Positions 8,813 to 60,122 of a stretch of DNA of 64,000 nt are shown here, piece after piece; within the stretch, counting starts at the first letter, position 1, and each line of letters begins with the position of its first letter. Source of the DNA: Escherichia phage outra; the sequence record MN850645.1. One strand, 5' to 3'. The position numbers and the translations under genes are program-made. The notes beneath the pieces are model-generated. The model had not been told where the DNA came from. It did not search any database and saw only the letters and a program-made list of their open reading frames with translations.

Positions 8813-9178
8813 TTAAACGTTTTCTAAATCTTTTAAGGCATTACCCAACGTTAGAACAATAACATCGTTTGCTGCCTCTTCCCCATTGATATTGGTGAAA
8901 TTTGGTGTGACAAAAGTAACCATATAAAACTCGTCCACCTGGAAGACAGCAATAACACCATCCATCTTAACATCTTGACGAAAGGAAAAACCAATCATCT
9001 TCTCTTGCAAAGGCATATCCCCTTCCTTCATTACCGCCAGGGAGTTTTCAGGAATGTTATATTTATCTGATCCGATGTAGATGTACGTAATGTTATCTTT
9101 ATCGTGATGATACAGGGTTGCTTTTTCCATATCTAAACCTGACAGATCAAATACGTTAATTTCTTGTGTAGTCTTCAT
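8813..9178 (-). CDS. hypothetical protein
   Basis: start moved to ATG 9178 preceded by GGGAGGA SD. Confidence 0.45.
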   Translation of the reverse strand: MKTTQEINVFDLSGLDMEKATLYHHDKDNITYIYIGSDKYNIPENSLAVMKEGDMPLQEKMIGFSFRQDVKMDGVIAVFQVDEFYMVTFVTPNFTNINGEEAANDVIVLTLGNALKDLENV

Positions 9179-9542
9179 AAATATCCTCCCAAATCCAATA
9201 ATCATCTGTGTAAGTAGGATGCCTTTTATCCCACTCTGCTCTAGCCCAAGCAACCGCTGCTACCAACACATCACCATGACAAGGTTGAGGTGCGCAGAAG
9301 CAAACTAAGTCTTTCCCTTCTAATTCTAACAAATCCTCAAGAGTGATTTTACCACAACGAATTTGTTCCCACAACCACTCTTTATATCTTTGTATAGTTG
9401 ACCCTCGTGGTTCATCATCCTTTAACTTAAAAGGATTTGCAAACTTTGAGGCTTTTAACCCCATATGAGGCATAGCTCTGCCAATGTAAACTGCACCTTC
9501 AGGTATTACTTTACCTAAGTGGTAAAAATTTAATACTTTCAT
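9156..9542 (-). CDS. hypothetical Cys/His-containing protein (CFCAPQPCHGD)
   Basis: track start 9566 is TTG; ATG at 9542 overlaps upstream stop (TAATATG). Confidence 0.45.
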   Translation of the reverse strand: MKVLNFYHLGKVIPEGAVYIGRAMPHMGLKASKFANPFKLKDDEPRGSTIQRYKEWLWEQIRCGKITLEDLLELEGKDLVCFCAPQPCHGDVLVAAVAWARAEWDKRHPTYTDDYWIWEDIYEDYTRN

Positions 9543-9543
9543 A

Positions 9544-9894
9544 TTAACCCAAACACATCTGTGCAATCAAGCCCTGTATAAATTTATTAGCTTCTTTACT
9601 GTCGTAGTCAGTCTCTTCTGGATATCCATCTTCATCGTACACAACTGTACCTTCAATATACCCTGCCTCAATTAAGGCGCGGATCATATCAAATTGCCAG
9701 CATGAGTTACCAAATGGACGTTTACCATTAAAACACTCTTCTTCTCTCCATAACGTAGAGAGTAGTTGTCGGAAATATTCCCGTACAGTGACAGTACCAA
9801 GATCTGAATCCTCAAACATAACATCCAGGGCATCAGGATTGCTTTTCTCTACGTAAGGAATATATTTAACACCATTAATAGTTACATCAAGCAT
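9544..9894 (-). CDS. hypothetical protein (116 aa)
   Basis: ORF in operon orientation. Confidence 0.5.
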   Translation of the reverse strand: MLDVTINGVKYIPYVEKSNPDALDVMFEDSDLGTVTVREYFRQLLSTLWREEECFNGKRPFGNSCWQFDMIRALIEAGYIEGTVVYDEDGYPEETDYDSKEANKFIQGLIAQMCLG

Positions 9895-15994: not shown

Positions 15995-17122
15995 ATGAAA
16001 TACACGATTTATGGTGATATTGTAAGTGTAAATAAAGATATGGGCGTGGAATCTAACTATCTTCCACCTGGATTCTATACTGTTAGTCGTGATCCCCTTG
16101 GCAATTATTTTTTAAGCCGTGGTAATCTGACAGGTGTACCTGATGTTCTGTATGGTGAAACAGAAAAACGAGCAAATCACGTTATCCGTACATTCCATCG
16201 CCGGAGTGCACAAGGTAAAAATACAGGATTGCTTCTGACAGGAACTAAGGGTAGTGGTAAAACTATGTTAGCCAAACTCATTAGTCGTGACCTTGTAGAA
16301 GAAGGTATTCCAACTATTATGGTTACTCAAGCCTACAGCGATGCTAATTTCATTGAACTTATTAGCAAGATCACCGACAAAGCAGTGATTATTTTTGACG
16401 AGTTTGATAAAGTGTATGAGAAGAAACAAGATCAAGAAGCACTTCTCACTTTGTTAGATGGTACTGGCAGTGGTAATAAACTGTTTATTCTAACTAAAAA
16501 CAGTGGCTTTATCTCTGAATTCTTTCTAAATCGTCCTAGTCGTGTGTTTTATAATTTTAATTATGATAAAATCTCACTAGAAACTATGATTGACTATTTA
16601 GATAAAAACCTGGATAACAAAGCACACTTTGATAATTTCCAAAGGCTTTGGGATGTAAGTTTAGAGTTGTCCTTTGATGTGATCCAAGGTATAGTAGAAG
16701 AACTTAATTTCTACCCTGATTTATCCTTTAAAGAATGCATCTCTATGATGGGCGTTTCTTTGGGTGGTGGTAATAAGTGGGATATCAGCAGCGTTGTTAT
16801 TAATGGGAAACTTCAGAAAGTTAGCTGGGTATCTAGTTGGCATAACTTCACACCTGCAATCTTTTTAGGTGGCTCGTGCACACTAGACGTGTACTTGTCA
16901 TCTCCAAGTGATGCAGACTCTAAAGAAGCCCTTGCTAATAGCTCTTACGTGGTTTTTGATGATGAAGGAGATGCTCGAATTCCATTGAATGCGACAAAAA
17001 TGAAAGCAGATCTTATTACAGGCGGTAAAATCGTTGTGTTTAGTGATGATCCAGAAGATTCTTTCCGTATTGTTCTGGAACCAACTATCACCAATGGTGC
17101 AACTTTGGCAAGCGTGTTTTAA
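15995..17122 (+). CDS. AAA+ family ATPase (paralogue 2)
   Basis: Walker A GTKGSGKT, Walker B IIFDEFDK, NRPSR; collinear similarity to 267-1427 product. Confidence 0.8.
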   Translation: MKYTIYGDIVSVNKDMGVESNYLPPGFYTVSRDPLGNYFLSRGNLTGVPDVLYGETEKRANHVIRTFHRRSAQGKNTGLLLTGTKGSGKTMLAKLISRDLVEEGIPTIMVTQAYSDANFIELISKITDKAVIIFDEFDKVYEKKQDQEALLTLLDGTGSGNKLFILTKNSGFISEFFLNRPSRVFYNFNYDKISLETMIDYLDKNLDNKAHFDNFQRLWDVSLELSFDVIQGIVEELNFYPDLSFKECISMMGVSLGGGNKWDISSVVINGKLQKVSWVSSWHNFTPAIFLGGSCTLDVYLSSPSDADSKEALANSSYVVFDDEGDARIPLNATKMKADLITGGKIVVFSDDPEDSFRIVLEPTITNGATLASVF

Positions 17123-17196: not shown

Positions 17197-18369
17197 ATGA
17201 CAGCACCAAAATCATGGGAACAATATAAAGAAGAATTAACACCCCTTGCTAAAAATCGCAATATTCAAATCCTGGGTTATGTTGGTGAATGGAAAGGGAA
17301 CAAGACTAAACTTAAGCTATCTTGCCCTAAACATGGAGAGTGGAACACCACGAACATTAATGATTTTAAGAAGGGACGTGGTTGTCCTATCTGTTCTGGT
17401 AAGAAGCCGTTAACATGGGAAACAGAATTGCCGATCTTGGAAGAGATAGCACAGAAGAGGGGGTATCAGGTGTTAGGGTACGTGGGAGAATGGAAAGGGA
17501 ATAAAACAAAACTTGATTTGTTGTGTCATTGTGGTAATAAATGGGATACTACAAGTATTAACAATTTTAAACGTGGTAGCGGTTGTCCACAATGTAAGAG
17601 GGAGAGACAAACAATGTCCGACGATCAACATATTGCAGATTTCTTTTCTACAGGGGAATTTAAGGAAGGCACTATCTTCACCAATACAGGGAAACGTAAC
17701 AAGCGTGATGCAGTATGGATGGTTGAGTGTCCTGTTTGCTCCCATGATGAATATGTTCAAGCAGGTGTTTGTGATGGTAAATTTTACTCTGCAGGACATA
17801 ACCTTAAACAAGGGTATATTCCGTGTCGTTGTGGGAACTATCAGTATACAGAAGACCAGATCACCTATAGGGTAAAAAAGGAAGTAGAAGGGAAAGGGTA
17901 TGTCTGGGTAGATTGGATTACCAAACCCTCTTCTATAGGTAAGTTTAAATATCTTTGTCTTGTGCATGGTGAGCAGATAGGGAGTGCTCGTAATTTATTA
18001 AGCCTCGGTCAAGGTTGTCCACAGTGTGCTGGTCATAATCAACAGCAATTATATATTAATATTGTTAAAGATAATGATATTATAGTTGCTCTTAAGTTTG
18101 GTATATCTAAAGATAGCGATAGACGATTAAACGGTCAAAATAGCCGTAATCTGTTTTTTATGGGGCGTATTTGTTTATATGATTTTAGCACAGTGAAACA
18201 ATGTAGGGCTGCTGAAAGAGCTATAAAGAAAAAATTAAAAACTGGTATTTTAACGGCAAGAGAGTTGAAAGATGGTTATACAGAAACAGTAAGTGTTTCT
18301 GATTTGGAAAATCTTCAAAAAATTATTACACAATATGGTGGCAAATTAGTATACAGTAAGGAGATGTAA
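17197..18369 (+). CDS. Zn-ribbon-repeat protein with C-terminal T5orf172/GIY-YIG-like domain
   Basis: three repeats of about 40 aa each ending in CxxC (GCPICSG, GCPQCKR, GCPQCAG); C-terminal LYINIV...ALKFGISKDSDRRL resembles T5orf172/MUG113 motif; AAGAGGAG SD. Confidence 0.5.
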   Translation: MTAPKSWEQYKEELTPLAKNRNIQILGYVGEWKGNKTKLKLSCPKHGEWNTTNINDFKKGRGCPICSGKKPLTWETELPILEEIAQKRGYQVLGYVGEWKGNKTKLDLLCHCGNKWDTTSINNFKRGSGCPQCKRERQTMSDDQHIADFFSTGEFKEGTIFTNTGKRNKRDAVWMVECPVCSHDEYVQAGVCDGKFYSAGHNLKQGYIPCRCGNYQYTEDQITYRVKKEVEGKGYVWVDWITKPSSIGKFKYLCLVHGEQIGSARNLLSLGQGCPQCAGHNQQQLYINIVKDNDIIVALKFGISKDSDRRLNGQNSRNLFFMGRICLYDFSTVKQCRAAERAIKKKLKTGILTARELKDGYTETVSVSDLENLQKIITQYGGKLVYSKEM

Positions 18370-18921
18370 ATGCGGATTACTGATAAGTATGTGTTCTTCT
18401 TCTCGGCAAAAGATGAATTTAGCAACTGGTATCTATCATCTTTTATTGAACCTTTAGCTCCCAAGTATAATAATTCTATTACAAGTTCTGTTGAATTTAC
18501 TTGTGTGGAACAATATATGATGTGGAGAAAAGCATGTTTGTTTTATGATTACAACATTGCATCTTCTATTTTAACCGGAGATCTAAGATATACAGGAGAA
18601 AAAGAACAGGCATATTATAAGCGACTAGGTAGATTAGTTAAAGATTACGATGAAGCTACTTGGACTTCTTTACGGGAGAAGATTGTCAAGCGTGGTTTGT
18701 ATCTTAAATACACACAAAATGAAGATCTCAAAAATAAACTTATCGCTTACGCAGATAAGGAGTTCGTAGAGGCAAGCCCTTATGATTCTATTTATGGTAT
18801 CAAAATGGGAATGTGGGATCGTGATGTGGAAAATAAGGACTGTTGGAAAGGACAAAATCTTTTAGGAAAATGGCATACAGACCTTGCTGTTTATCTAAAA
18901 GCACAATCTGATATTTCCTGA
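18370..18921 (+). CDS. NADAR-family (YbiA-like, DUF1768) protein
   Basis: FFFS..DEFSNW, EQYMMWRKA and FVEASPYDSIYGIKMG blocks match the YbiA/NADAR pattern; ATG overlaps upstream stop (TAAATG). Confidence 0.65.
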   Translation: MRITDKYVFFFSAKDEFSNWYLSSFIEPLAPKYNNSITSSVEFTCVEQYMMWRKACLFYDYNIASSILTGDLRYTGEKEQAYYKRLGRLVKDYDEATWTSLREKIVKRGLYLKYTQNEDLKNKLIAYADKEFVEASPYDSIYGIKMGMWDRDVENKDCWKGQNLLGKWHTDLAVYLKAQSDIS

Positions 18922-44657: not shown

Positions 44658-45470
44658 TTACTTAGTCAAATGATCTTCTATCATTTTTATGAAAGCAGGA
44701 TTGCTAAAAGCCTCTGCTGCCTTTTCTCTATAAACAAAGACTCCTCTATCTTCGTAAAGAAGAGTTTCTTCGTAATTAATTCCTGGGTTAACAACAATCA
44801 TTTTTGTACCCATATTAAGTGCAGGAAATAATTCCCAATTAAAATTGATAACTTGGTTTGAACATCCTACTACAACAACCAAATCTTGCATGGTCAGAGT
44901 ATCAAACAAGTAAGCCATATCTGCATACAAAGGTGCAGCCTCGCCAAAAAATACAACATTAGGCTTCACCCAGTTATAATCATCTATGTTTATACTATTG
45001 TAACCAATGTCTACCAGTGTTTTGTAATCTCCAGGATGCATACGGTAAACTACTTCAGGAAGATACCCGTGCACGTGAATAACAGAATCCCTGTCCACAC
45101 CTGCTCGCTCTAGTAGATCATCAACGTTTGTTGTCAAGTTTACTACTTGGTTAGGATATTCCTTAAACCACTTTGCTATTTGAATATGTGCAGCATTAGG
45201 TTGTACATCTTTAAGCTCAACACGTCTTTTGTTATAAAATTCGTGTGTTTTGGCATACAAATCCATACCGTTCTCGTCTACACCACCGACCACTGGAAGA
45301 TCTGGAGATGTTCTAACACGATAACCTGCTTGGAAAGCTCCAATATCGCAGACCTCTTCTAAATCATATTCTTCCCATAAGGCACGACCACTATCTGTGT
45401 CTGTTCGGAATGTTCGAATCCCACTGTCTGCACTTAAACCTGCGCCACTAACAAAAATTACTCTTCGCAT
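44658..45470 (-). CDS. Sir2-family (sirtuin-like) NAD-dependent protein
   Basis: N-terminal GAGLSADSGIRTFR, NAAH...TTNVDDLLERAG...IHVHG, VVFFGE blocks match sirtuin motifs; no CxxC...CxxC Zn ribbon seen. Confidence 0.7.
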   Translation of the reverse strand: MRRVIFVSGAGLSADSGIRTFRTDTDSGRALWEEYDLEEVCDIGAFQAGYRVRTSPDLPVVGGVDENGMDLYAKTHEFYNKRRVELKDVQPNAAHIQIAKWFKEYPNQVVNLTTNVDDLLERAGVDRDSVIHVHGYLPEVVYRMHPGDYKTLVDIGYNSINIDDYNWVKPNVVFFGEAAPLYADMAYLFDTLTMQDLVVVVGCSNQVINFNWELFPALNMGTKMIVVNPGINYEETLLYEDRGVFVYREKAAEAFSNPAFIKMIEDHLTK

Positions 45471-46676: not shown

Positions 46677-46799
46677 TTACCCCCAATGTATATGGGAAAT
46701 TAACCAAAAGATAAATTCCCAAAAACACCAACCAAGAAAAGTTAATGGAATTATAAAAGCTATCAGAGCAGTCTTCCAGCCTTTCCACAATGTTTCCAT
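46677..46799 (-). CDS. hypothetical membrane peptide (40 aa)
   Basis: hand-translated; GGAGGAAT SD; Trp-rich hydrophobic. Confidence 0.35.
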   Translation of the reverse strand: METLWKGWKTALIAFIIPLTFLGWCFWEFIFWLISHIHWG

Positions 46800-47788
46800 T
46801 ATTCCTCCATACATTTAAGAATATGTGCAATGACAGGTATAGTCCAACCGTTGCCTAACATCTTATATGCTTGTGTGTTACTACTCACTTTAAAGTAATC
46901 ATCTGGAACACCTTGTAAGCGGCAACACTCTTTAACCGTTAACTTTCTATAATGTACGCCTTCACTCAATTTTTCAAAGGCATCTAGATATCTTCCAGGT
47001 GGAATGTAGGCTAATAGTACGTCTTTCGGCACAGTCGTGAGGCAACGAGTTTTTTCACTGTCCTGAACTTCCAAACAATGTACCAAACGATCAGTTTTAG
47101 ATGTACTACGTTTGCCATTTTCATTAATTCTACGCCCATATATTGCTGCCGGATAAAAAACCAGTTGTCTGCGACTCTTTTCAAAATACTGTTCTATATT
47201 ACCACCTTTGGCATAATTTGCATCTATGCAATAAGCCTTATCTCTGTCTACGATACTATCATCTTCAATGATATCTTGCAACACTTCATTGGTAATATCC
47301 CAAGGTTTTATTTCCCAATTGCACCAGTATAAACGTTGTCTATTCTGTGCCGTGAAATCTGCGGAGTTAATGAACACGGGATCAACACCTAAGTAACTTG
47401 TGATCACGTTTTCCCACTCCACCTTCATCTTAACGTTCTCAAGCATGAACTTAACATTAGGGTTAAACTTTTTAATATGTTCAAGAATTTCAACATATTC
47501 AAAGAACAGTTTAGATCGCGGATCTTGAAAGTTCAAACCCTTACCAGAAGAAGAGAAGCCTTGGCACGGGCTACCACCTAACAAAAGATCAATTTCTCCC
47601 CACGGGATATCCCATTCTCTCCATTTTGTAACATCACCTAACTGAATAATATCTGGAAAATTTGCTTGGCTTTCGGCTATGGCAAATTTGTCTAATTCTG
47701 AAGCATAATATGTATCTACTTCAATACCTGCACTTTTTAGCGCAAGCATTCCTCCTGACATACCATCAAAAAGACTTAAAACTTTCAT
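46799..47788 (-). CDS. DNA (cytosine-5)-methyltransferase
   Basis: motif I LFDGMSGG, motif IV GGSPCQGFS, ENV motif. Confidence 0.85.
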   Translation of the reverse strand: MKVLSLFDGMSGGMLALKSAGIEVDTYYASELDKFAIAESQANFPDIIQLGDVTKWREWDIPWGEIDLLLGGSPCQGFSSSGKGLNFQDPRSKLFFEYVEILEHIKKFNPNVKFMLENVKMKVEWENVITSYLGVDPVFINSADFTAQNRQRLYWCNWEIKPWDITNEVLQDIIEDDSIVDRDKAYCIDANYAKGGNIEQYFEKSRRQLVFYPAAIYGRRINENGKRSTSKTDRLVHCLEVQDSEKTRCLTTVPKDVLLAYIPPGRYLDAFEKLSEGVHYRKLTVKECCRLQGVPDDYFKVSSNTQAYKMLGNGWTIPVIAHILKCMEE

Positions 47789-48283: not shown

Positions 48284-48541
48284 TTATTCTACAGGAACTT
48301 CTTCACCAAGAGAAACTTCTAAACGGAATGCTTTACTTTCAATACACTCACTACCTTTTAGAAAATCAAATTGCACTATAGACTGACTTAATAGAATAGA
48401 TAGGATCACATCGCAATCTTCACTAGGGGCTAGATGTTTGTATTCTTCCTTCAAGGTAACATCATAAAAACATAAATCCCCTACTCCTAGTTCATCCCAT
48501 CCTTCCCACGCATCTACAAAGTTAAACTCTAAACCTTTCAT
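48284..48541 (-). CDS. hypothetical acidic protein (85 aa)
   Basis: ORF in operon orientation. Confidence 0.5.
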   Translation of the reverse strand: MKGLEFNFVDAWEGWDELGVGDLCFYDVTLKEEYKHLAPSEDCDVILSILLSQSIVQFDFLKGSECIESKAFRLEVSLGEEVPVE

Positions 48542-49062
48542 ACAACCTCCTCGTAGTTGTTATTGTGTTTTACTGTCTCAACATACAATAAAGATTCCAT
48601 CTGTAATACATTACCAGAAATAATAAACCCATAAGCCATTTCAGATGTGTCTATATCATATGCCCCGTCTTCCGGTTTAGCAAAGTGTAAAACTATTTCA
48701 TCCGGGTTTTCTTCATCCCATATTTTAGAAATTTTCCGAACCAGAATGTTAGCTAAGATAGTTGACATTCGGGATAAAGCTGTATCCTCATATCTTTTAA
48801 AACCTAGCCAATAGAGATTAAGAATTTCTACTTCTTCTTGTGTTAAGTTTTTGTCTAAAGTAATCAGATCTGTAGAGCACGGCGTTTTTGTTGAACCCAC
48901 TGTTACAAAACCTGGAGTGTTATGAAAAACAATCTTAACTTTATCACGTATAAAGTTTAAACCTTGTGCCTCAACTATATATTGTATTGTAGGTACAATA
49001 TCGTTTGTTACATCAATAAAACTATCTTTAATGACGCTTATATTATTTCTGGACAAGACCAT
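48538..49062 (-). CDS. hypothetical protein (174 aa)
   Basis: 4-nt overlap. Confidence 0.5.
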   Translation of the reverse strand: MVLSRNNISVIKDSFIDVTNDIVPTIQYIVEAQGLNFIRDKVKIVFHNTPGFVTVGSTKTPCSTDLITLDKNLTQEEVEILNLYWLGFKRYEDTALSRMSTILANILVRKISKIWDEENPDEIVLHFAKPEDGAYDIDTSEMAYGFIISGNVLQMESLLYVETVKHNNNYEEVV

Positions 49063-49621
49063 TCTCCTCTAAGATAGGCTTAATAAATTCGAAAATTTGT
49101 TTTTTACTTTTACCTCGAATATTAAAACAAGGAACATTAAACTTTTTAGCCAACATCCAAGCTGTTCTTGTACCACCTAAAGGATCTCCATTTTTATCTG
49201 TATTTGCACAAGCTAAAAGAAAACAAGATGGTTTTGGATTCTCAAGATCTCTTCCAAGAACTTGGTGGATATTTCTTTGATGTAATTTTTTAGCACCTTG
49301 AGATAATCTGTCCCAAGCTGGATGCAATTCTTTTGCATATTGCAAGGTTAAAGCATAGTTTACACTATCTGGTCTATCAAGAACAATAACCTCTCCCTCT
49401 ATCTCATTACCTTTAAACGAGAGCCAAGGAATGTATATTTCTTTCTTTGTATTGTTCCCACTATCATATACCCCGCATTCAAATGCGGAATCTGCACCTC
49501 CTGCTTTACCAGATCGCAAAATGAACCATGTAGATAACCATTTTGCAACAGATACCATAGTATCCCACTCTTCGTCTGTAATATCTCTGCTACCAACACC
49601 TGTGTAGAATAAATCGCTCAT
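49043..49621 (-). CDS. DprA/Smf-like (SLOG Rossmann-fold) protein
   Basis: YTGVGSRDITDEE ... SGKAGGADSAFECG resembles DprA GxGSR / GGAxGxD blocks; start moved to ATG 49621 with AAGGAGAAAACC SD. Confidence 0.4.
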   Translation of the reverse strand: MSDLFYTGVGSRDITDEEWDTMVSVAKWLSTWFILRSGKAGGADSAFECGVYDSGNNTKKEIYIPWLSFKGNEIEGEVIVLDRPDSVNYALTLQYAKELHPAWDRLSQGAKKLHQRNIHQVLGRDLENPKPSCFLLACANTDKNGDPLGGTRTAWMLAKKFNVPCFNIRGKSKKQIFEFIKPILEENGLVQK

Positions 49622-49631
49622 GGTTTTCTCC

Positions 49632-49952
49632 TTAACAAGTAATATTGGGAGTAACAATAGGATTAACAATTGGAGTAATAGGGTACGTAAACCAAGGGCT
49701 TCCAATTTCCCAAGGATAATAAGGTCTACGAGGATCATATGGAGGAGTTACTTCAGGCTTTTTCCAAATCTCCGCTAGTTGTTTCTTCCATTTATCCCTT
49801 GCTGTCTCATTATCTTCATCCAACTGTTCATCATTATCTTTTATTTCTGGTTTTGGAAATAAAAGCTCTTTGACTAACTCAACATCTTCCGTCTCAATAG
49901 TAGTTTCTTTCGTAAGTTCTCCTACTGTTTCTTTAATTGTGATTTTATACAT
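49632..49952 (-). CDS. hypothetical Pro-rich protein (106 aa)
   Basis: ORF in operon orientation. Confidence 0.45.
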   Translation of the reverse strand: MYKITIKETVGELTKETTIETEDVELVKELLFPKPEIKDNDEQLDEDNETARDKWKKQLAEIWKKPEVTPPYDPRRPYYPWEIGSPWFTYPITPIVNPIVTPNITC

Positions 49953-50698
49953 TAGTCCTCCTCTAAAGTAGAATAAAATTGTAACGTATTTGAATCATCA
50001 AAATATGCAAAGGTTAAATTACCATTGAAGCAAGATCCTGTGTCCATATATACCCTATTACTGCTAATTACAGGTTTAGGAACATAAGAATGCCCGTGAA
50101 ATACATAATCTACTCCTGAGACTCTAGGAAGAAGAATCCCTTCAAGTGCGCAATCTATCATATCACGATCCCACATTAAAGATTCTGTGAATCGAGAAAC
50201 TTGCTCTTTATTCATATTCAAACAAAATGGCAAAACTTCTGTCACTGGTAAATGTTCCAAAACTGAAGGATACCCACCGTGAATAAAGCCTAGTTTCATA
50301 TTACGATAATTGACAACAAGTACAACAGGTAAATCTTCTAGCATCAAAGCAAGAGCAGTTGCACCCTCTTCTCCACACTCGTCTAGAACTGTATGGCCTC
50401 CGTTCTGAAACCAACATTCGTAATATCGTCTATCACCTTCTAGCAACCCTTTAATCATCATATCTTCATGATTTCCACGAATACCATAACGATTTAGCTT
50501 TCTGGTGAATTCAACAACACAACGAAAATTCTGCTTGCCGCGATCTGTAAGATCTCCTAAAGATACAACAACATCTTGATCTCGGATACCTAAAGTATTA
50601 ACACCTTTCTGGTACAAATCAAAGCAACCATGTAAATCACCAATAATAAACAGGTCTTGATCATCTTTTACACTAATTTCTTGATATACTAGCATCAA
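49952..50698 (-). CDS. Ser/Thr protein phosphatase (calcineurin-like metallophosphoesterase)
   Basis: GDLHG, GDLTDRG, GNHE motifs. Confidence 0.85.
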   Translation of the reverse strand: MMLVYQEISVKDDQDLFIIGDLHGCFDLYQKGVNTLGIRDQDVVVSLGDLTDRGKQNFRCVVEFTRKLNRYGIRGNHEDMMIKGLLEGDRRYYECWFQNGGHTVLDECGEEGATALALMLEDLPVVLVVNYRNMKLGFIHGGYPSVLEHLPVTEVLPFCLNMNKEQVSRFTESLMWDRDMIDCALEGILLPRVSGVDYVFHGHSYVPKPVISSNRVYMDTGSCFNGNLTFAYFDDSNTLQFYSTLEED

Positions 50699-51031: not shown

Positions 51032-51604
51032 TTAATGTGTTAATGAAACTGCATAACTAAACACAGGTTCAGATATTACATCGGCTACAGTAATAAAAAC
51101 GTCTTCGTCTTGAGTTGTTTCTACACGACATACAGTTACACCATTCACCACGAATTCAACGCAATGTGGAATATCTTCACAAACGAAGGTAGTGTAAGTA
51201 ACACCCAAAGCATCATACAAAGATTTAACAGTGTTTGCAAGTGTCGCAGTTTCTTCTTTTTCTGAGACAATGAATGCTGTAACAATAAGATTGTTTGCAT
51301 AGTTTAGACTGTCCTCTATAGCCAATGATTTACAAGGTAGTAATGCAAAATATTTACCTGGTTTAATCAGACCTGCTTCCCATTGATTCAAAATTGCCTG
51401 GGATGGTTTAGTAATATAAAACAGATTTTCACTTGGGTTATCAATATTACTTCTGGCGATACAACGTGAAGGATTATTAATATCAAATACATGATCAAAA
51501 TCTACACAAACAGGTAAACTGAAAGGTGTGAATTTTTTATCTAATAATCCTATGGCTGATAATATGTTTGCTGTGCTTATCTTCCCGTTAAAAGCTAAAC
51601 GCAT
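51032..51604 (-). CDS. hypothetical protein (190 aa)
   Basis: ORF in operon orientation. Confidence 0.5.
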   Translation of the reverse strand: MRLAFNGKISTANILSAIGLLDKKFTPFSLPVCVDFDHVFDINNPSRCIARSNIDNPSENLFYITKPSQAILNQWEAGLIKPGKYFALLPCKSLAIEDSLNYANNLIVTAFIVSEKEETATLANTVKSLYDALGVTYTTFVCEDIPHCVEFVVNGVTVCRVETTQDEDVFITVADVISEPVFSYAVSLTH

Positions 51605-56597: not shown

Positions 56598-56864
56598 TTA
56601 CTCCGCAATCTGAGCCATGAATTCACGTAGTTCAGAAAAACCTCCTACGTGGGTTAGCTGTTCACCATCTTCCACAAAAATTTGAGGAAATGTGCGTGGT
56701 AGAACACCTGTTTTCTCTAAAACCAGATTCTGAATCTGATCTAAAGAATAGTCTTCATCTAAGGTAAGGTATTTAAAATCCTGTTCACGCTGTTCTAGTA
56801 GAATCTTAGCGTTAGTGCAGAAAGGACAATTTGGTTTACCGTAGATAATAAAATTCATTTTCAC
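56598..56864 (-). CDS. glutaredoxin (T4 NrdC-like)
   Basis: YGKPNCPFC active-site CxxC, 88 aa, thioredoxin-fold length. Confidence 0.8.
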   Translation of the reverse strand: MKMNFIIYGKPNCPFCTNAKILLEQREQDFKYLTLDEDYSLDQIQNLVLEKTGVLPRTFPQIFVEDGEQLTHVGGFSELREFMAQIAE

Positions 56865-57691
56865 TCCTTGTTTAAAAGTATAGTTAAAGTTTTTACAATA
56901 CCGCTATCAACACTTCGCGGATTTAAAGTAGGATCTGTTTTTAAATAAGATGTTGCTGGTCTGACTGCTTTGGAATTATAGGTTGAAGCAGATACAGGAT
57001 TAACTGTAACAGACAAATCTATAACAAGAAATATCTTTCGTGCAAAATCATACCAAGAAATATAATCTGCACCTGCATAGTGTACAATTTTACTATTTAC
57101 ACCATCTTTTACAAGTTTAAAAATTGTTTCTGCAAGATCAGGTGCATAAGTAGGACATGATAAATGATCACATACTACATTAAATTCTTTTTGACCACCG
57201 TTGTAGCGTTCCAACATAGTTTTCAAAAAGTTATGTCCAAATTCACTATAAACAGAAGCTGTTCTGATAATAAGTGCTGTAGGACAAACTGCTTGTACTA
57301 AAGTTTCACCTAATTGTTTACTGTAACCGTAGGTGTTCAAGGGGTTTGTTTTACTCTCTTCTGTGCCAGCAACATGCCCATCAAAAACATAGTCTGTTGA
57401 AATATGTACAAACTGTATCAGTAAATCATTACATGCTTTGGCAATGTTTGTTGCACCGTATGCATTAACATTTATACAGGTGTTAACATCTTCTTCAGCT
57501 TTATCTACTGCCGTGTAAGCCGCACAATTCACAACAACATCAGGCACGTGCTGTACAAGACTATTCATAACATCTTTAAAGTTGGTAATGTCTATATCAC
57601 TTGCTTCAATCAAAATAACATCTTCGGGCGCAACTTTTGCCAAAGACTGTCCTAATTGACCTTTTGAACCAAAGATTAAAAATTTTGTCAA
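56861..57691 (-). CDS. rmlD: dTDP-4-dehydrorhamnose reductase
   Basis: N-terminal Rossmann FGSKGQLG, 276 aa, operon context after rmlC. Confidence 0.75.
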   Translation of the reverse strand: MTKFLIFGSKGQLGQSLAKVAPEDVILIEASDIDITNFKDVMNSLVQHVPDVVVNCAAYTAVDKAEEDVNTCINVNAYGATNIAKACNDLLIQFVHISTDYVFDGHVAGTEESKTNPLNTYGYSKQLGETLVQAVCPTALIIRTASVYSEFGHNFLKTMLERYNGGQKEFNVVCDHLSCPTYAPDLAETIFKLVKDGVNSKIVHYAGADYISWYDFARKIFLVIDLSVTVNPVSASTYNSKAVRPATSYLKTDPTLNPRSVDSGIVKTLTILLNKE

Positions 57692-58242
57692 AATATCATC
57701 TCCTTTAGTGTTTTGGCTTGCTGATCTTTTTGTGACAAGATAGGTTTAAAATTAATATCATTAAAGATTAAATCAAAACCCCAATCTACATTGATATCTG
57801 GATCATTCCACGCAAGACTACACTCGGAAGTCGGATCGTAATATTCTGTACATTTATATTCAAAATCAGCAATGTCGCTAATCACAACAAAACCATGAGC
57901 GAAACCAGGAGGAATCCAAAATTGTGTTTTATTCTTTTCAGATAAAAGAACACCTACCCATTCTCCAAATGTTGGACTACCAACCCTAATATCTACAGCA
58001 ACATCATAAACTTCACCACGAACACAACGTACTAACTTCCCTTGTGGGTTTTTCTTTTGAAAATGAAGCCCACGTAGAACTCCTCGAATAGAACGTGAGT
58101 GGTTATCCTGGACAAAGTTTTGTTTACCTATGTATTGATCATATAAAGCCTGATTAAAACTTTCTAAGAAAAAGCCACGTTCATCTCCGTAAACGTCAGG
58201 TTGAATGATCAACAAATCTTCGATTTTTGTTGCTTGAATCAT
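57688..58242 (-). CDS. rmlC: dTDP-4-dehydrorhamnose 3,5-epimerase
   Basis: 184 aa cupin-like, RGLHFQ motif, operon context. Confidence 0.75.
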   Translation of the reverse strand: MIQATKIEDLLIIQPDVYGDERGFFLESFNQALYDQYIGKQNFVQDNHSRSIRGVLRGLHFQKKNPQGKLVRCVRGEVYDVAVDIRVGSPTFGEWVGVLLSEKNKTQFWIPPGFAHGFVVISDIADFEYKCTEYYDPTSECSLAWNDPDINVDWGFDLIFNDINFKPILSQKDQQAKTLKEMIF

Positions 58243-58254
58243 TTAATCTCCCCT

Positions 58255-59124
58255 TTATTTTAATTTAAGTAAATACTTGCCGTAGTCTGTTTTACTTAAA
58301 ACCTCTCCAGAACTTTTTACGGAATCTAAAGTAATCCATTCATTTTTAAAAGCAATCTCTTCTAGGCATGCAACCTTCATACCTTGTTGCTTTTCTATTG
58401 CATGAACAAATTGAGATGCTTCCATAAGACTTTCATGTGTTCCTGTATCCAACCAAGTGAAACCTCTTCCTAGCTTACAGACACGTAAAGCCTTTTCTTT
58501 CCAGTACATCTCATTTATATCTGTGATCTCTAACTCCCCTCTAGCAGAAGGCTTAACGCTTTTAGCTTTCTGTATAACAGAATTATCGTAAAAGTACAAG
58601 CCTGTAATTGCATAGTTGCTTTTTGGTGCTTTTGGTTTTTCTTCAATACTTACCACTGTACCTTCAGAATCAAACTCAACAACACCAAACCTTTCAGGAT
58701 CATTTACGTGATACCCAAAAATATTAGCTCCACCATTCTTTTCAATATGTTCTCTAGCAGAATCTAAAATGCTACCAAAACTCTGACCAAAGAATAAATT
58801 ATCACCTAGAACAAGTGCTACAGAATCTTCACCAATAAAGCTCTCACCAATAATAAACGCTTCTGCTAAACCTTTTGGGCTGTCCTGTATTGCATACTGT
58901 AGGGAAACACCAAAAGAAGAACCATCACCTAAAAGATTTACAAAATTAATTTGATCTTCTGGTGTTGTAATTATTAGTATTTCCCTAATTCCAGAAAGCA
59001 TTAGGACAGAGAGTGGATAATAAATCATAGGTTTATCATAAATTGGTAATAGTTGTTTACTAACCCCTTTAGTAACTGGGTAAAGTCTTGTTCCACTACC
59101 ACCTGCTAAGATAATACCTTTCAT
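58255..59124 (-). CDS. rmlA: glucose-1-phosphate thymidylyltransferase
   Basis: [18 protein letters not shown] nucleotidyltransferase signature, 289 aa. Confidence 0.85.
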
Positions 59125-59132
59125 ACTCCTCC

Positions 59133-60122
59133 TTAAACTTTATTTTCCCACCACTCTTTGTTATCTACATACCAATCAATGGTTGAATAAAGTTTTTCTT
59201 CAAATGTGCCTTTAGCTTTCCACCCTAATTCCTTTTCAATCTTATAAGGATTCACTTCATATCTTAAATCATGCCCAGGCCTATCTGTAACCATCTCAAT
59301 GAGGCTACAAGCATCTGTTTCAGATGGATATACCGCATCCATATAATCGCAAATCATATAGATTACATCAATATTAGTTCTAGGGTTTCTGCTCCCAATA
59401 TTATATGTCTCTCCAGATTTGCCTTTAGTTACTACTAGGTGTAATGCTTCTGCGTGATCGTCAACGTATAACCAATCTCTTACTTGAAGACCATTGCCAT
59501 AAACAGGGATTGGTTTATTCATTAAGATATTTGTTATCGTCTTAGGTATTAGTTTTTCTGGATGATGATATGCTCCAAAATTATTTGAACAATTTGTTAT
59601 AACTGTCGGAATACCATAAGTACGATGCCACGCTCTTACCAAATGATCGCTTGCAGCTTTAGATGCAGCATATGGACTACTTGGTTTATAAGGATTCTGT
59701 TCTGTAAACGGATAATCCCCTTCTTCCATATCACCATACACTTCATCTGTTGAAATATGATGGAACATTTTAAGATTTGATTTATCTCCCATTAAACGAA
59801 CAGCTTCTAGAAGATTAAATGTCCCAACAATATTTGAATTTATAAAAACACTCGGTGATGCTATTGAATTATCTACGTGACTTTCTGCTGCAAGATGCAT
59901 TATATAATCTGGATTAACATCTGCCACAATCTTAGCAGTTAACTGTGCATTTGTCAAGTCAACACGACAAAACTTTACATTAGGTGTTTCTGATAAATTT
60001 CTAGGGTCTGAAGCGTAACCCCATTTATCTATAACGTAAATATCATTCTTAGTATTTTTAGCTAGGAAACGAACTACCGCACTTCCAATAAAGCCTAAAC
60101 CACCTGTTACTAAGTATTTCAT
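59133..60122 (-). CDS. rmlB: dTDP-glucose 4,6-dehydratase
   Basis: TGGLGFIGS Rossmann motif, YAASK (YxxxK) catalytic motif, 329 aa. Confidence 0.8.

Follow-up and report, generated by a model that had tools for sequence, protein, structure and literature searches.

The window analysed here, a 64,000-nucleotide stretch of Escherichia phage outra (MN850645.1), encodes on its minus strand a 192-aa protein, the counterpart of Escherichia phage phi92 gp047 and hereafter designated gp047. This protein belongs to a virus-specific, DprA-clade SLOG family (PHROG 768) and is not a bona fide DprA. Its most likely role, to which we assign a probability of roughly 0.45, is that of a protein binding or processing nucleotide or ADP-ribose derivatives in counter-defence. 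This reading is founded on the enzyme-like invariance of the gp047 pocket, on the recurrent fusion of its relatives to NADAR, DUF4326 and other SLOG domains, on the presence of NADAR, DUF4326 and Sir2 proteins in the same genome, and on the NAD-salvage neighbourhood of a homologue in Pseudomonas phage PaoP5.

The minus-strand translation from 49621 to 49046 reads MSDLFYTGVGSRDITDEEW...LRSGKAGGADSAFECG... and is followed by a TAA stop codon at 49045-49043. Searches with tblastn revealed 99.5% identity to phi92 gp047 (YP_009012378), and likewise to many Justusliebigvirus isolates, indicating that the window derives from a phi92-like myovirus. The program-made list of open reading frames (ORFs) prolongs this frame up to an ATG at 49738; the true start is the ATG at 49621, given the AGGAG sequence located 6 nt upstream, the end of the preceding gene at 49632 and the agreement with the phi92 annotation. 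A first-pass annotation, made from the sequence of the window, had described a DprA/Smf-like protein at 49043-49621. The gene and the two peptides that it quoted, YTGVGSRDITDEE (residues 6-18, 49568-49606) and SGKAGGADSAFECG (residues 37-50, 49472-49513), are real, although the location of all three on the minus strand and the identity with phi92 gp047 had gone unnoticed. The original annotation of phi92 described gp047 as a 'potential DNA processing protein like fold', and the RefSeq entry designates it a 'DprA-like DNA recombination-mediator protein'.

A virus-specific family with a DprA-like SLOG fold

The PHROG 768 profile ('DprA-like') matched gp047 with an E-value of 2.1e-59, aligning protein residues 2-186 with positions 2-184 of the 191 in the profile. 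Homologues were detected by tblastn in 1235 of 50,697 phage records, mainly in large phages of Pseudomonas, Klebsiella, Escherichia, Aeromonas, Vibrio and Acinetobacter, and a search of 1.84 billion proteins with a profile of 58 homologues recovered 6010 cluster representatives at E<=1e-3, including 2025 at E<=1e-30. Queried by itself, gp047 returned no matches in direct scans of Pfam (even at E<=10), NCBIfam or PADLOC, and a single-sequence search against the PDB retrieved solely NSA2, with an E-value of 0.8 that was judged to reflect chance. The profile E-values and the high confidence of the predicted fold rule out a chance motif or a spurious ORF. Three GenBank records assigned to Campylobacter phages A150, A110a and B15 (MG065639.1, MG065689.1 and MG065650.1) encode proteins that share 98-99% identity with their equivalents in E. 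coli phages of the phi92 type, which makes their host assignment doubtful.

An AlphaFold2 model of gp047, built from the 58-sequence alignment (pLDDT 97.1, pTM 0.92), outlined one compact domain with the three-layer alpha/beta Rossmannoid sandwich of solved SLOG structures. The top Foldseek matches of this model in the PDB were exclusively SLOG-superfamily structures, headed by Helicobacter pylori DprA (E 5.7e-6) and followed by the molybdenum cofactor (MoCo) carrier protein, Streptococcus pneumoniae DprA, ShosA, LOG enzymes and the SLOG domain of ThsA. The first-pass annotation had put forward a SLOG/DprA fold, and both the model and the Foldseek search bear this out. Comparison with models of viral proteins yielded TM-scores of ~0.8 within the gp047 family, versus ~0.45 for the clearly more distant viral SLOGs of the YspA/YAcAr type (DUF2493, PF10686) and for a Marseillevirus Rossmann protein.

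Within the SLOG superfamily, profile comparisons identify DprA proteins as the closest cellular relatives of gp047. The five best PDB matches of the family profile were all DprA proteins, aligned across the GSR...SGxAxGxD segment, and the Pfam DprA model (PF02481) weakly matched 47 of the 58 homologues, with a best E-value of 3.6e-6. LDcluster4 matched ten of these homologues, and no match to LOG (PF03641), YpsA or YAcAr was detected in Pfam among the 58. Alignment of the family against five DprA domains with hhalign gave a probability of 75% for the same N-terminal segment, and the local alignment was significant solely for the first ~45 residues, either with these five domains or with E. coli Smf alone. 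In a global hhalign alignment, the LHxRN motif of the family falls on the FxRRN of DprA and GGTRTA on SGSxxT, a half of the alignment that is not significant by itself (probability 16%). This global alignment lent no support to an initial mapping of H100 (in HPAW) onto Y108 of H. pylori DprA (HpDprA), which was dropped.

Several features separate gp047 from DprA proper. The PF02481 scores of the listed relatives (16-21 bits) fall below the gathering threshold of 29.6 bits, and gp047 itself has no match. The 192-aa single domain of gp047 carries neither the N-terminal SAM module nor the C-terminal DML1 winged-helix module; single-domain DprAs do exist (PMC3950713), and the absence of accessory domains alone is not disqualifying. 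In addition, the insert that separates strands 3 and 4 of the model has its secondary-structure elements in an order unlike that of DprA. Within the SLOG (Smf/DprA-LOG) superfamily of Rossmannoid proteins, the family constitutes a large branch specific to viruses, of which gp047 is a stand-alone, single-domain member.

Conservation of the pocket motifs

Two signatures have been described for DprA proteins binding single-stranded DNA (ssDNA), 'G-S/T/A-R' and 'F/L/Y-x-x-R-N/D', and in HpDprA residues R52, F140, R143 and N144 form a single-base pocket (Wang et al., PMC3950713). Both hmmsearch and hhalign aligned G10-S11-R12 of gp047 with the DprA GSR motif and its R36-D44 segment with SGLARGID, and gp047 itself reads L113-H-Q-R116-N117 at the second signature. 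The loops typical of SLOG pockets are likewise present, at G8/G10 and at G149-G150-T151...T153, with conservation of at least 93-100%. The GxGSR / GGAxGxD-like signature noticed in the first-pass annotation also withstood the analysis of 256 domain instances, in which its residues (G10, R12, S37, G38, G42 and D44) are at least 97% conserved.

Conservation of the pocket across these 256 domains is very strong, with 17 positions (G10, R12, R36, G38, A40, G42, D44, H114, R116, N117, Q120, G123, G149, G150, T151, A154 and N167) at 98% or above. Five invariant polar residues among them, R36, H114, Q120, T151 and N167, have no DprA counterpart, and, judging from the sequence alignment, this additional invariance looks like the conservation of an enzyme or of a protein with a specific ligand. 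In the secondary structure of the model, conserved residues map to the C-terminal ends of strands or to helix starts, which would place them where Rossmannoid proteins bind their ligands. The C-terminal helix is poorly conserved across the family. The isoelectric points of gp047 (6.8), of the family (median 8.25) and of DprA domains (5.8-9.1) do not discriminate among functional hypotheses.

Fusion partners and genomic context

Eight relatives of gp047 are fused to NADAR or DUF4326 domains. These include NADAR-SLOG fusions (P0140, P0209), proteins with DUF4326 on either side of the SLOG domain (P0210, P0221, P0233, P0064) and two polyvalent proteins of 1.5 kaa (P0121, P0122), which combine two copies of the gp047-family SLOG domain with YAcAr and LDcluster4 SLOG domains and a C-terminal NADAR domain. 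Other relatives are fused to phage domains with no match in Pfam or among PDB sequences, namely phrog_2072 (C-terminal, ~130 aa; P0191, P0193, P0246) and phrog_9995 (N-terminal, ~125 aa; P0208, P0228). A FVFGSN..G.HG.GAA motif had raised the suspicion that phrog_2072 might be Macro-like; a PDB profile search for it came back empty, and PHROGs returned solely a weak 'phosphatase' match. Fusion of a Macro domain to the gp047 family was not demonstrated among the relatives analysed.

The outra genome encodes as separate genes the domains that are fused in other viruses (Table 1). A stand-alone NADAR protein and a stand-alone DUF4326 protein were detected in the window with custom hidden Markov models, and subsequently with Pfam. 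By analogy with the fusions, both are candidate functional partners of gp047, and the NADAR protein may be a DNA de-ADP-ribosylase of the AdfN type. The Sir2-family gene provides a candidate NAD-related context, linked to gp047 by its position. The NADAR gene is preceded by genes for an AAA/STAND-like ATPase (15995-17122, plus strand) and for a protein with CapR-homology, treble-clef and T5orf172 domains (17197-18369, plus strand). Homologues of the DUF4326 protein occur in 939 phage records, where they are often annotated as 'NrdA.1-like' or mislabelled as 'ribonucleotide reductase NrdA-like'.

In both the window and phi92, gp047 is part of a long same-strand early/middle operon that encodes a DNA polymerase, thymidine kinase, deoxyribonucleotidase, NrdAB, thioredoxin, dTDP-rhamnose genes, PhoH and an HslV-like peptidase, and that continues with DNA methyltransferases, an invertase and a NinI-like phosphatase before reaching gp047, a C5-methyltransferase and the Sir2 protein. 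The counterpart of phi92 gp046 (48538-49062; PHROG 8569) begins 20 nt within the end of gp047, suggesting translational coupling. Further along the minus strand, a 190-aa ORF (51032-51604) matches PHROG 4806, labelled 'histidyl tRNA synthetase'; it is far too short for such an enzyme and has no Pfam match, so that the label is probably misleading. Four successive minus-strand ORFs at 56861-60122 (276, 184, 289 and 329 aa) agree in size and order with the phi92 dTDP-rhamnose genes gp064-gp067 and make up a complete nucleotide-sugar pathway.

Beyond phi92-like phages, the operon of the PaoP5 homologue (PaoP5_014; NC_029083.1, 5121-9683) also comprises genes annotated as ribose-phosphate pyrophosphokinase, nicotinamide phosphoribosyltransferase and phosphatase, a set reminiscent of an NAD+-reconstitution (NARP1-type) module. 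The gp047 homologue of the T4-like phage KP179 lies immediately after an RNA ligase gene.

Table 1. Location of gp047, its pocket motifs and context genes in the 64,000-nucleotide window. Percentages denote conservation over 256 domain instances.
Feature	Coordinates	Strand	Evidence or conservation
Coding sequence of the 192-aa DprA-clade SLOG protein (phi92 gp047), stop codon included	49043..49621	-	Translation; 99.5% identity to phi92 gp047 / YP_009012378; PHROG 768 E 2e-59; AlphaFold2 pLDDT 97
Shine-Dalgarno AGGAG, 6 nt upstream of ATG 49621	49628..49632	-	Direct sequence reading; same ribosome-binding site annotated in phi92
G10-S11-R12, loop after strand 1 (DprA 'G-S/T/A-R'; HpDprA G50-R52, with gating Arg52)	49586..49594	-	G10 99.6%, S11 95%, R12 99%
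R36-S-G-x-A-x-G-A-D44, end of strand 2/start of helix 2 (DprA 'SGxAxGxD')	49490..49516	-	R36, G38, A40, G42, D44 >=99%; R36 specific to the phage family
L113-H-x-R116-N117-x-x-Q120, on helix 108-122 (DprA 'F/L/Y-x-x-R-N/D')	49262..49285	-	R116, N117, Q120 100%, H114 98%, L113 95%; H114 and Q120 family-specific
G149-G150-T151-R-T153-A154, loop/helix start (cf. DprA 'SGS..T', LOG 'GGxGT')	49160..49177	-	G149, G150, T151 >=99.6%, A154 98%; global hhalign
NinI-like Ser/Thr metallophosphatase, two genes upstream of gp047	49952-50698	-	
C5-cytosine DNA methyltransferase, three genes downstream of gp047	46799-47788	-	
Sir2-family (NAD-dependent) protein, end of the gp047 operon, 3.6 kb downstream	44658..45470	-	Pfam PF02146 E 2.5e-22; PHROG 2162 E 5e-105
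Stand-alone NADAR protein, not adjacent to gp047	18370..18921	+	Pfam PF08719 E 2.3e-36, 126 bits
Stand-alone DUF4326 (T4 NrdA.1-like) protein, not adjacent to gp047	9156..9566	-	Pfam PF14216 E 1.8e-21, 77 bits

A candidate role in nucleotide or ADP-ribose handling

The association of SLOG domains with ADP-ribose chemistry in viruses has been outlined before. Iyer, Burroughs, Anantharaman and Aravind (2022, PMC9503650) catalogued viral SLOGs and found them fused to Macro, NADAR and DUF4326 domains or occurring together with them, DUF4326 being assigned to the rhodanese-phosphatase clade. ADP-ribose derivatives were predicted to be the molecules on which viral SLOGs act, and the authors proposed that these SLOGs sense or degrade signals of the cyclic ADP-ribose (cADPR) type by attacking the 1'-ribosyl-adenine bond. 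Going by that published description, gp047 resembles the catalogued proteins in being a stand-alone phage SLOG, of a kind enriched in larger phage genomes and associated with NADAR, Macro or DUF4326 domains; it differs in that most viral SLOGs were placed in a 'YpsA-like' clade, whereas the nearest measurable family of gp047 is DprA. Among the associated domains, phage NADAR (T4 30.3/AdfN) and Macro (tk.4/AdfM) have been proven to act against DarT, as enzymes that reverse DarT-mediated DNA ADP-ribosylation.

In the mechanism that we favour, gp047 would be produced from an early/middle nucleotide-metabolism operon and would form its pocket at the C-terminal ends of the strands, from the GSR loop, the RSGxAxGAD segment, the LHxRNxxQ helix, the GGT loop and N167. 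The pocket would accommodate one nucleotide unit (base plus ribose-phosphate), and the most probable ligand would be an adenine nucleotide from the NAD+/ADP-ribose family, whether free or attached to nucleic acid. Through glycosidic-bond cleavage or sequestration of the molecule, gp047 could counter NAD/ADP-ribose-based host immunity alongside NADAR, DUF4326 and Sir2-type proteins, and it would probably not operate as a classical RecA-loading recombination mediator. In a more specific version, which we regard as attractive but speculative and rather unlikely, the DprA-type single-base pocket would recognise an ADP-ribosylated base on ssDNA or the ADP-ribose adduct itself, and gp047 would cooperate with NADAR, DUF4326 and Macro enzymes in stripping DarT-type DNA ADP-ribosylation inflicted by the host; alternatively, gp047 would destroy ADP-ribose-derived immune signals. 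The first-pass annotation had named ssDNA or nucleotide signals, including defence second messengers, as what such proteins may bind, and both remain a fitting range for gp047, with the evidence shifting the weight towards nucleotide/ADP-ribose handling.

Two proteins with roles in immunity offer a comparison. The SLOG sensor of ThsA (PDB 7UXS), which responds to 3'cADPR, is fused to an effector (SIR2 or transmembrane) and activated by cADPR isomers, whereas gp047 has no effector fusion. The second is ORF83, a phage protein from Gao et al. (2022) that is annotated as 'Smf/DprA' and reported in the EVADES preprint (10.1101/2025.06.06.658234) to inhibit type III Avs (Avs3). The same preprint describes ORF83 relatives fused to DUF4326 in amoeba viruses and suggests that ORF83 might be an AMP phosphoribohydrolase. 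Like gp047, ORF83 is a small stand-alone phage SLOG with an Arg-Asn pair in the pocket, a downstream Thr and DUF4326-fused relatives. Given that the spacing from this Arg to the Thr is 23 residues in ORF83 and 35 in gp047, ORF83 probably belongs to a sister subfamily.

Several observations weigh against a role of gp047 in ADP-ribose handling. Its nearest sequence relatives are the ssDNA-binding DprA proteins, both of whose published binding signatures are intact in gp047. Residue 156, which a manual motif alignment places in register with the catalytic Glu of the LOG motif PGGxGTxxE, is variable (M/V/K/N/E) in the family, and a LOG-type hydrolytic mechanism is therefore not supported. The NADAR, DUF4326 and Sir2 genes of the window lie 4-40 kb from gp047, none of them adjacent to it, and in three metagenomic contigs the gene is surrounded largely by unannotated small ORFs, in which a conserved operon was not seen, save for one NADAR gene ~6 kb off and one metallophosphatase. 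The parallel with ORF83 was drawn from its published description, not from sequence homology. Finally, no experimental work on gp047 or PHROG 768 was found in the literature, and the gp047 family goes unmentioned in publications on RyDEP, NARP3, immune balancing, HIDEN-SEQ and NADAR specificity.

The DprA relationship suggests an alternative function, in which gp047, as a minimal recombination mediator, would use the GSR / LxxRN pocket to bind ssDNA of the phage and would assist in loading host RecA or a phage recombinase in recombination-dependent replication or repair. The invariance of R12, L113, R116, N117 and G150, equivalent to R52, F140, R143, N144 and G164 of HpDprA, is consistent with this proposal, as is the location of gp047 amid genes for DNA and nucleotide metabolism, and the divergent DprA-like protein ShosA still binds both ssDNA, via the same two arginines, and RecA. 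The comparison with DprA/Smf proteins (PF02481; H. pylori 4LJK/4LJR/5MLL, Rhodopseudomonas palustris 3MAJ) nevertheless argues against it. At ~190 aa, gp047 is a single domain devoid of SAM and DML1/winged-helix modules and scoring under the Pfam threshold, and the variable C-terminal helix of the family is the site of dimerisation and RecA contacts in DprA. The recurrent fusion partners are NADAR, DUF4326 and other SLOGs, instead of recombination domains, and the family does not appear in competence or recombination contexts. T4-like carriers of the family, moreover, already possess UvsX/UvsY. The related phage protein ORF83 was likewise reported to lack the DprA dimerisation and RecA-binding residues and to obtain a low AlphaFold3 score with RecA (EVADES, 10.1101/2025.06.06.658234). 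A role as recombination mediator appears unlikely, yet with the DprA pocket motifs intact it is the most serious rival to the favoured reading.

Somewhat more doubtful is the proposal that gp047 acts like LOG enzymes, as a nucleotide phosphoribohydrolase on a simple (deoxy)nucleoside monophosphate such as AMP, remodelling the nucleotide pool or removing a mononucleotide danger signal. The LHxRN helix is similar to the 'MHxRK' motif of LOG, and gp047 shares its operon with thymidine kinase, deoxyribonucleotidase, NrdAB and thioredoxin. Furthermore, the EVADES alignment equates R115/K116 of LOG with R89/N90 of ORF83. However, the catalytic Glu that LOG and PpnN (PF03641) conserve is the variable position noted above, PF03641 matches none of the 58 family members, and the NADAR/DUF4326 fusions point to ADP-ribose chemistry over plain monophosphates. 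It is very improbable, in turn, that gp047 acts as an orphan mimic of an antitoxin, namely as a phage-borne ShosA that neutralises ShosTA in the manner in which phage NADAR and Macro proteins mimic DarTG antitoxins. ShosA (PDB 8ZVA/9VZO) does share a divergent DprA-like fold with gp047, its essential antitoxin arginines R139 and R234 match the invariant R12 and R116, and the NADAR domains fused to gp047 relatives are proven orphan-antitoxin counter-defences. Yet ShosA is a host-encoded protein of ~320 aa, located beside a phosphoribosyltransferase toxin, that functions as an obligate dimer and depends on RecA binding, on a SAM domain and on its dimer interface; gp047 shows no evident sign of any of the three. 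The gp047 family is also much more widely spread than known ShosTA systems, and there is no experimental hint of such mimicry.

The gene, its fold assignment and the NAD/ADP-ribose hypothesis are already present in the literature, and the sequence finding in itself adds nothing new to them. The label of 'recombination mediator' that databases attach to the gp047 family rests on no experiment, and identification of the ligand or substrate would correct an annotation that has been propagated. Were the ADP-ribose-directed pocket proposed above confirmed, more than 1,200 sequenced phages would prove to carry a new class of counter-defence, acting as an enzyme or as an adaptor. An added counter-defence activity of this kind could be relevant to therapeutic phages of the phi92-, PAK_P1- and T4-like groups. 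The interest of gp047 lies in its being a very widespread and strongly conserved candidate counter-defence protein, from a large family (1235 phage genomes, about 6000 sequence clusters) whose pocket shows conservation like that of enzyme active sites and which is repeatedly joined to domains proven to undo host ADP-ribosylation defences.

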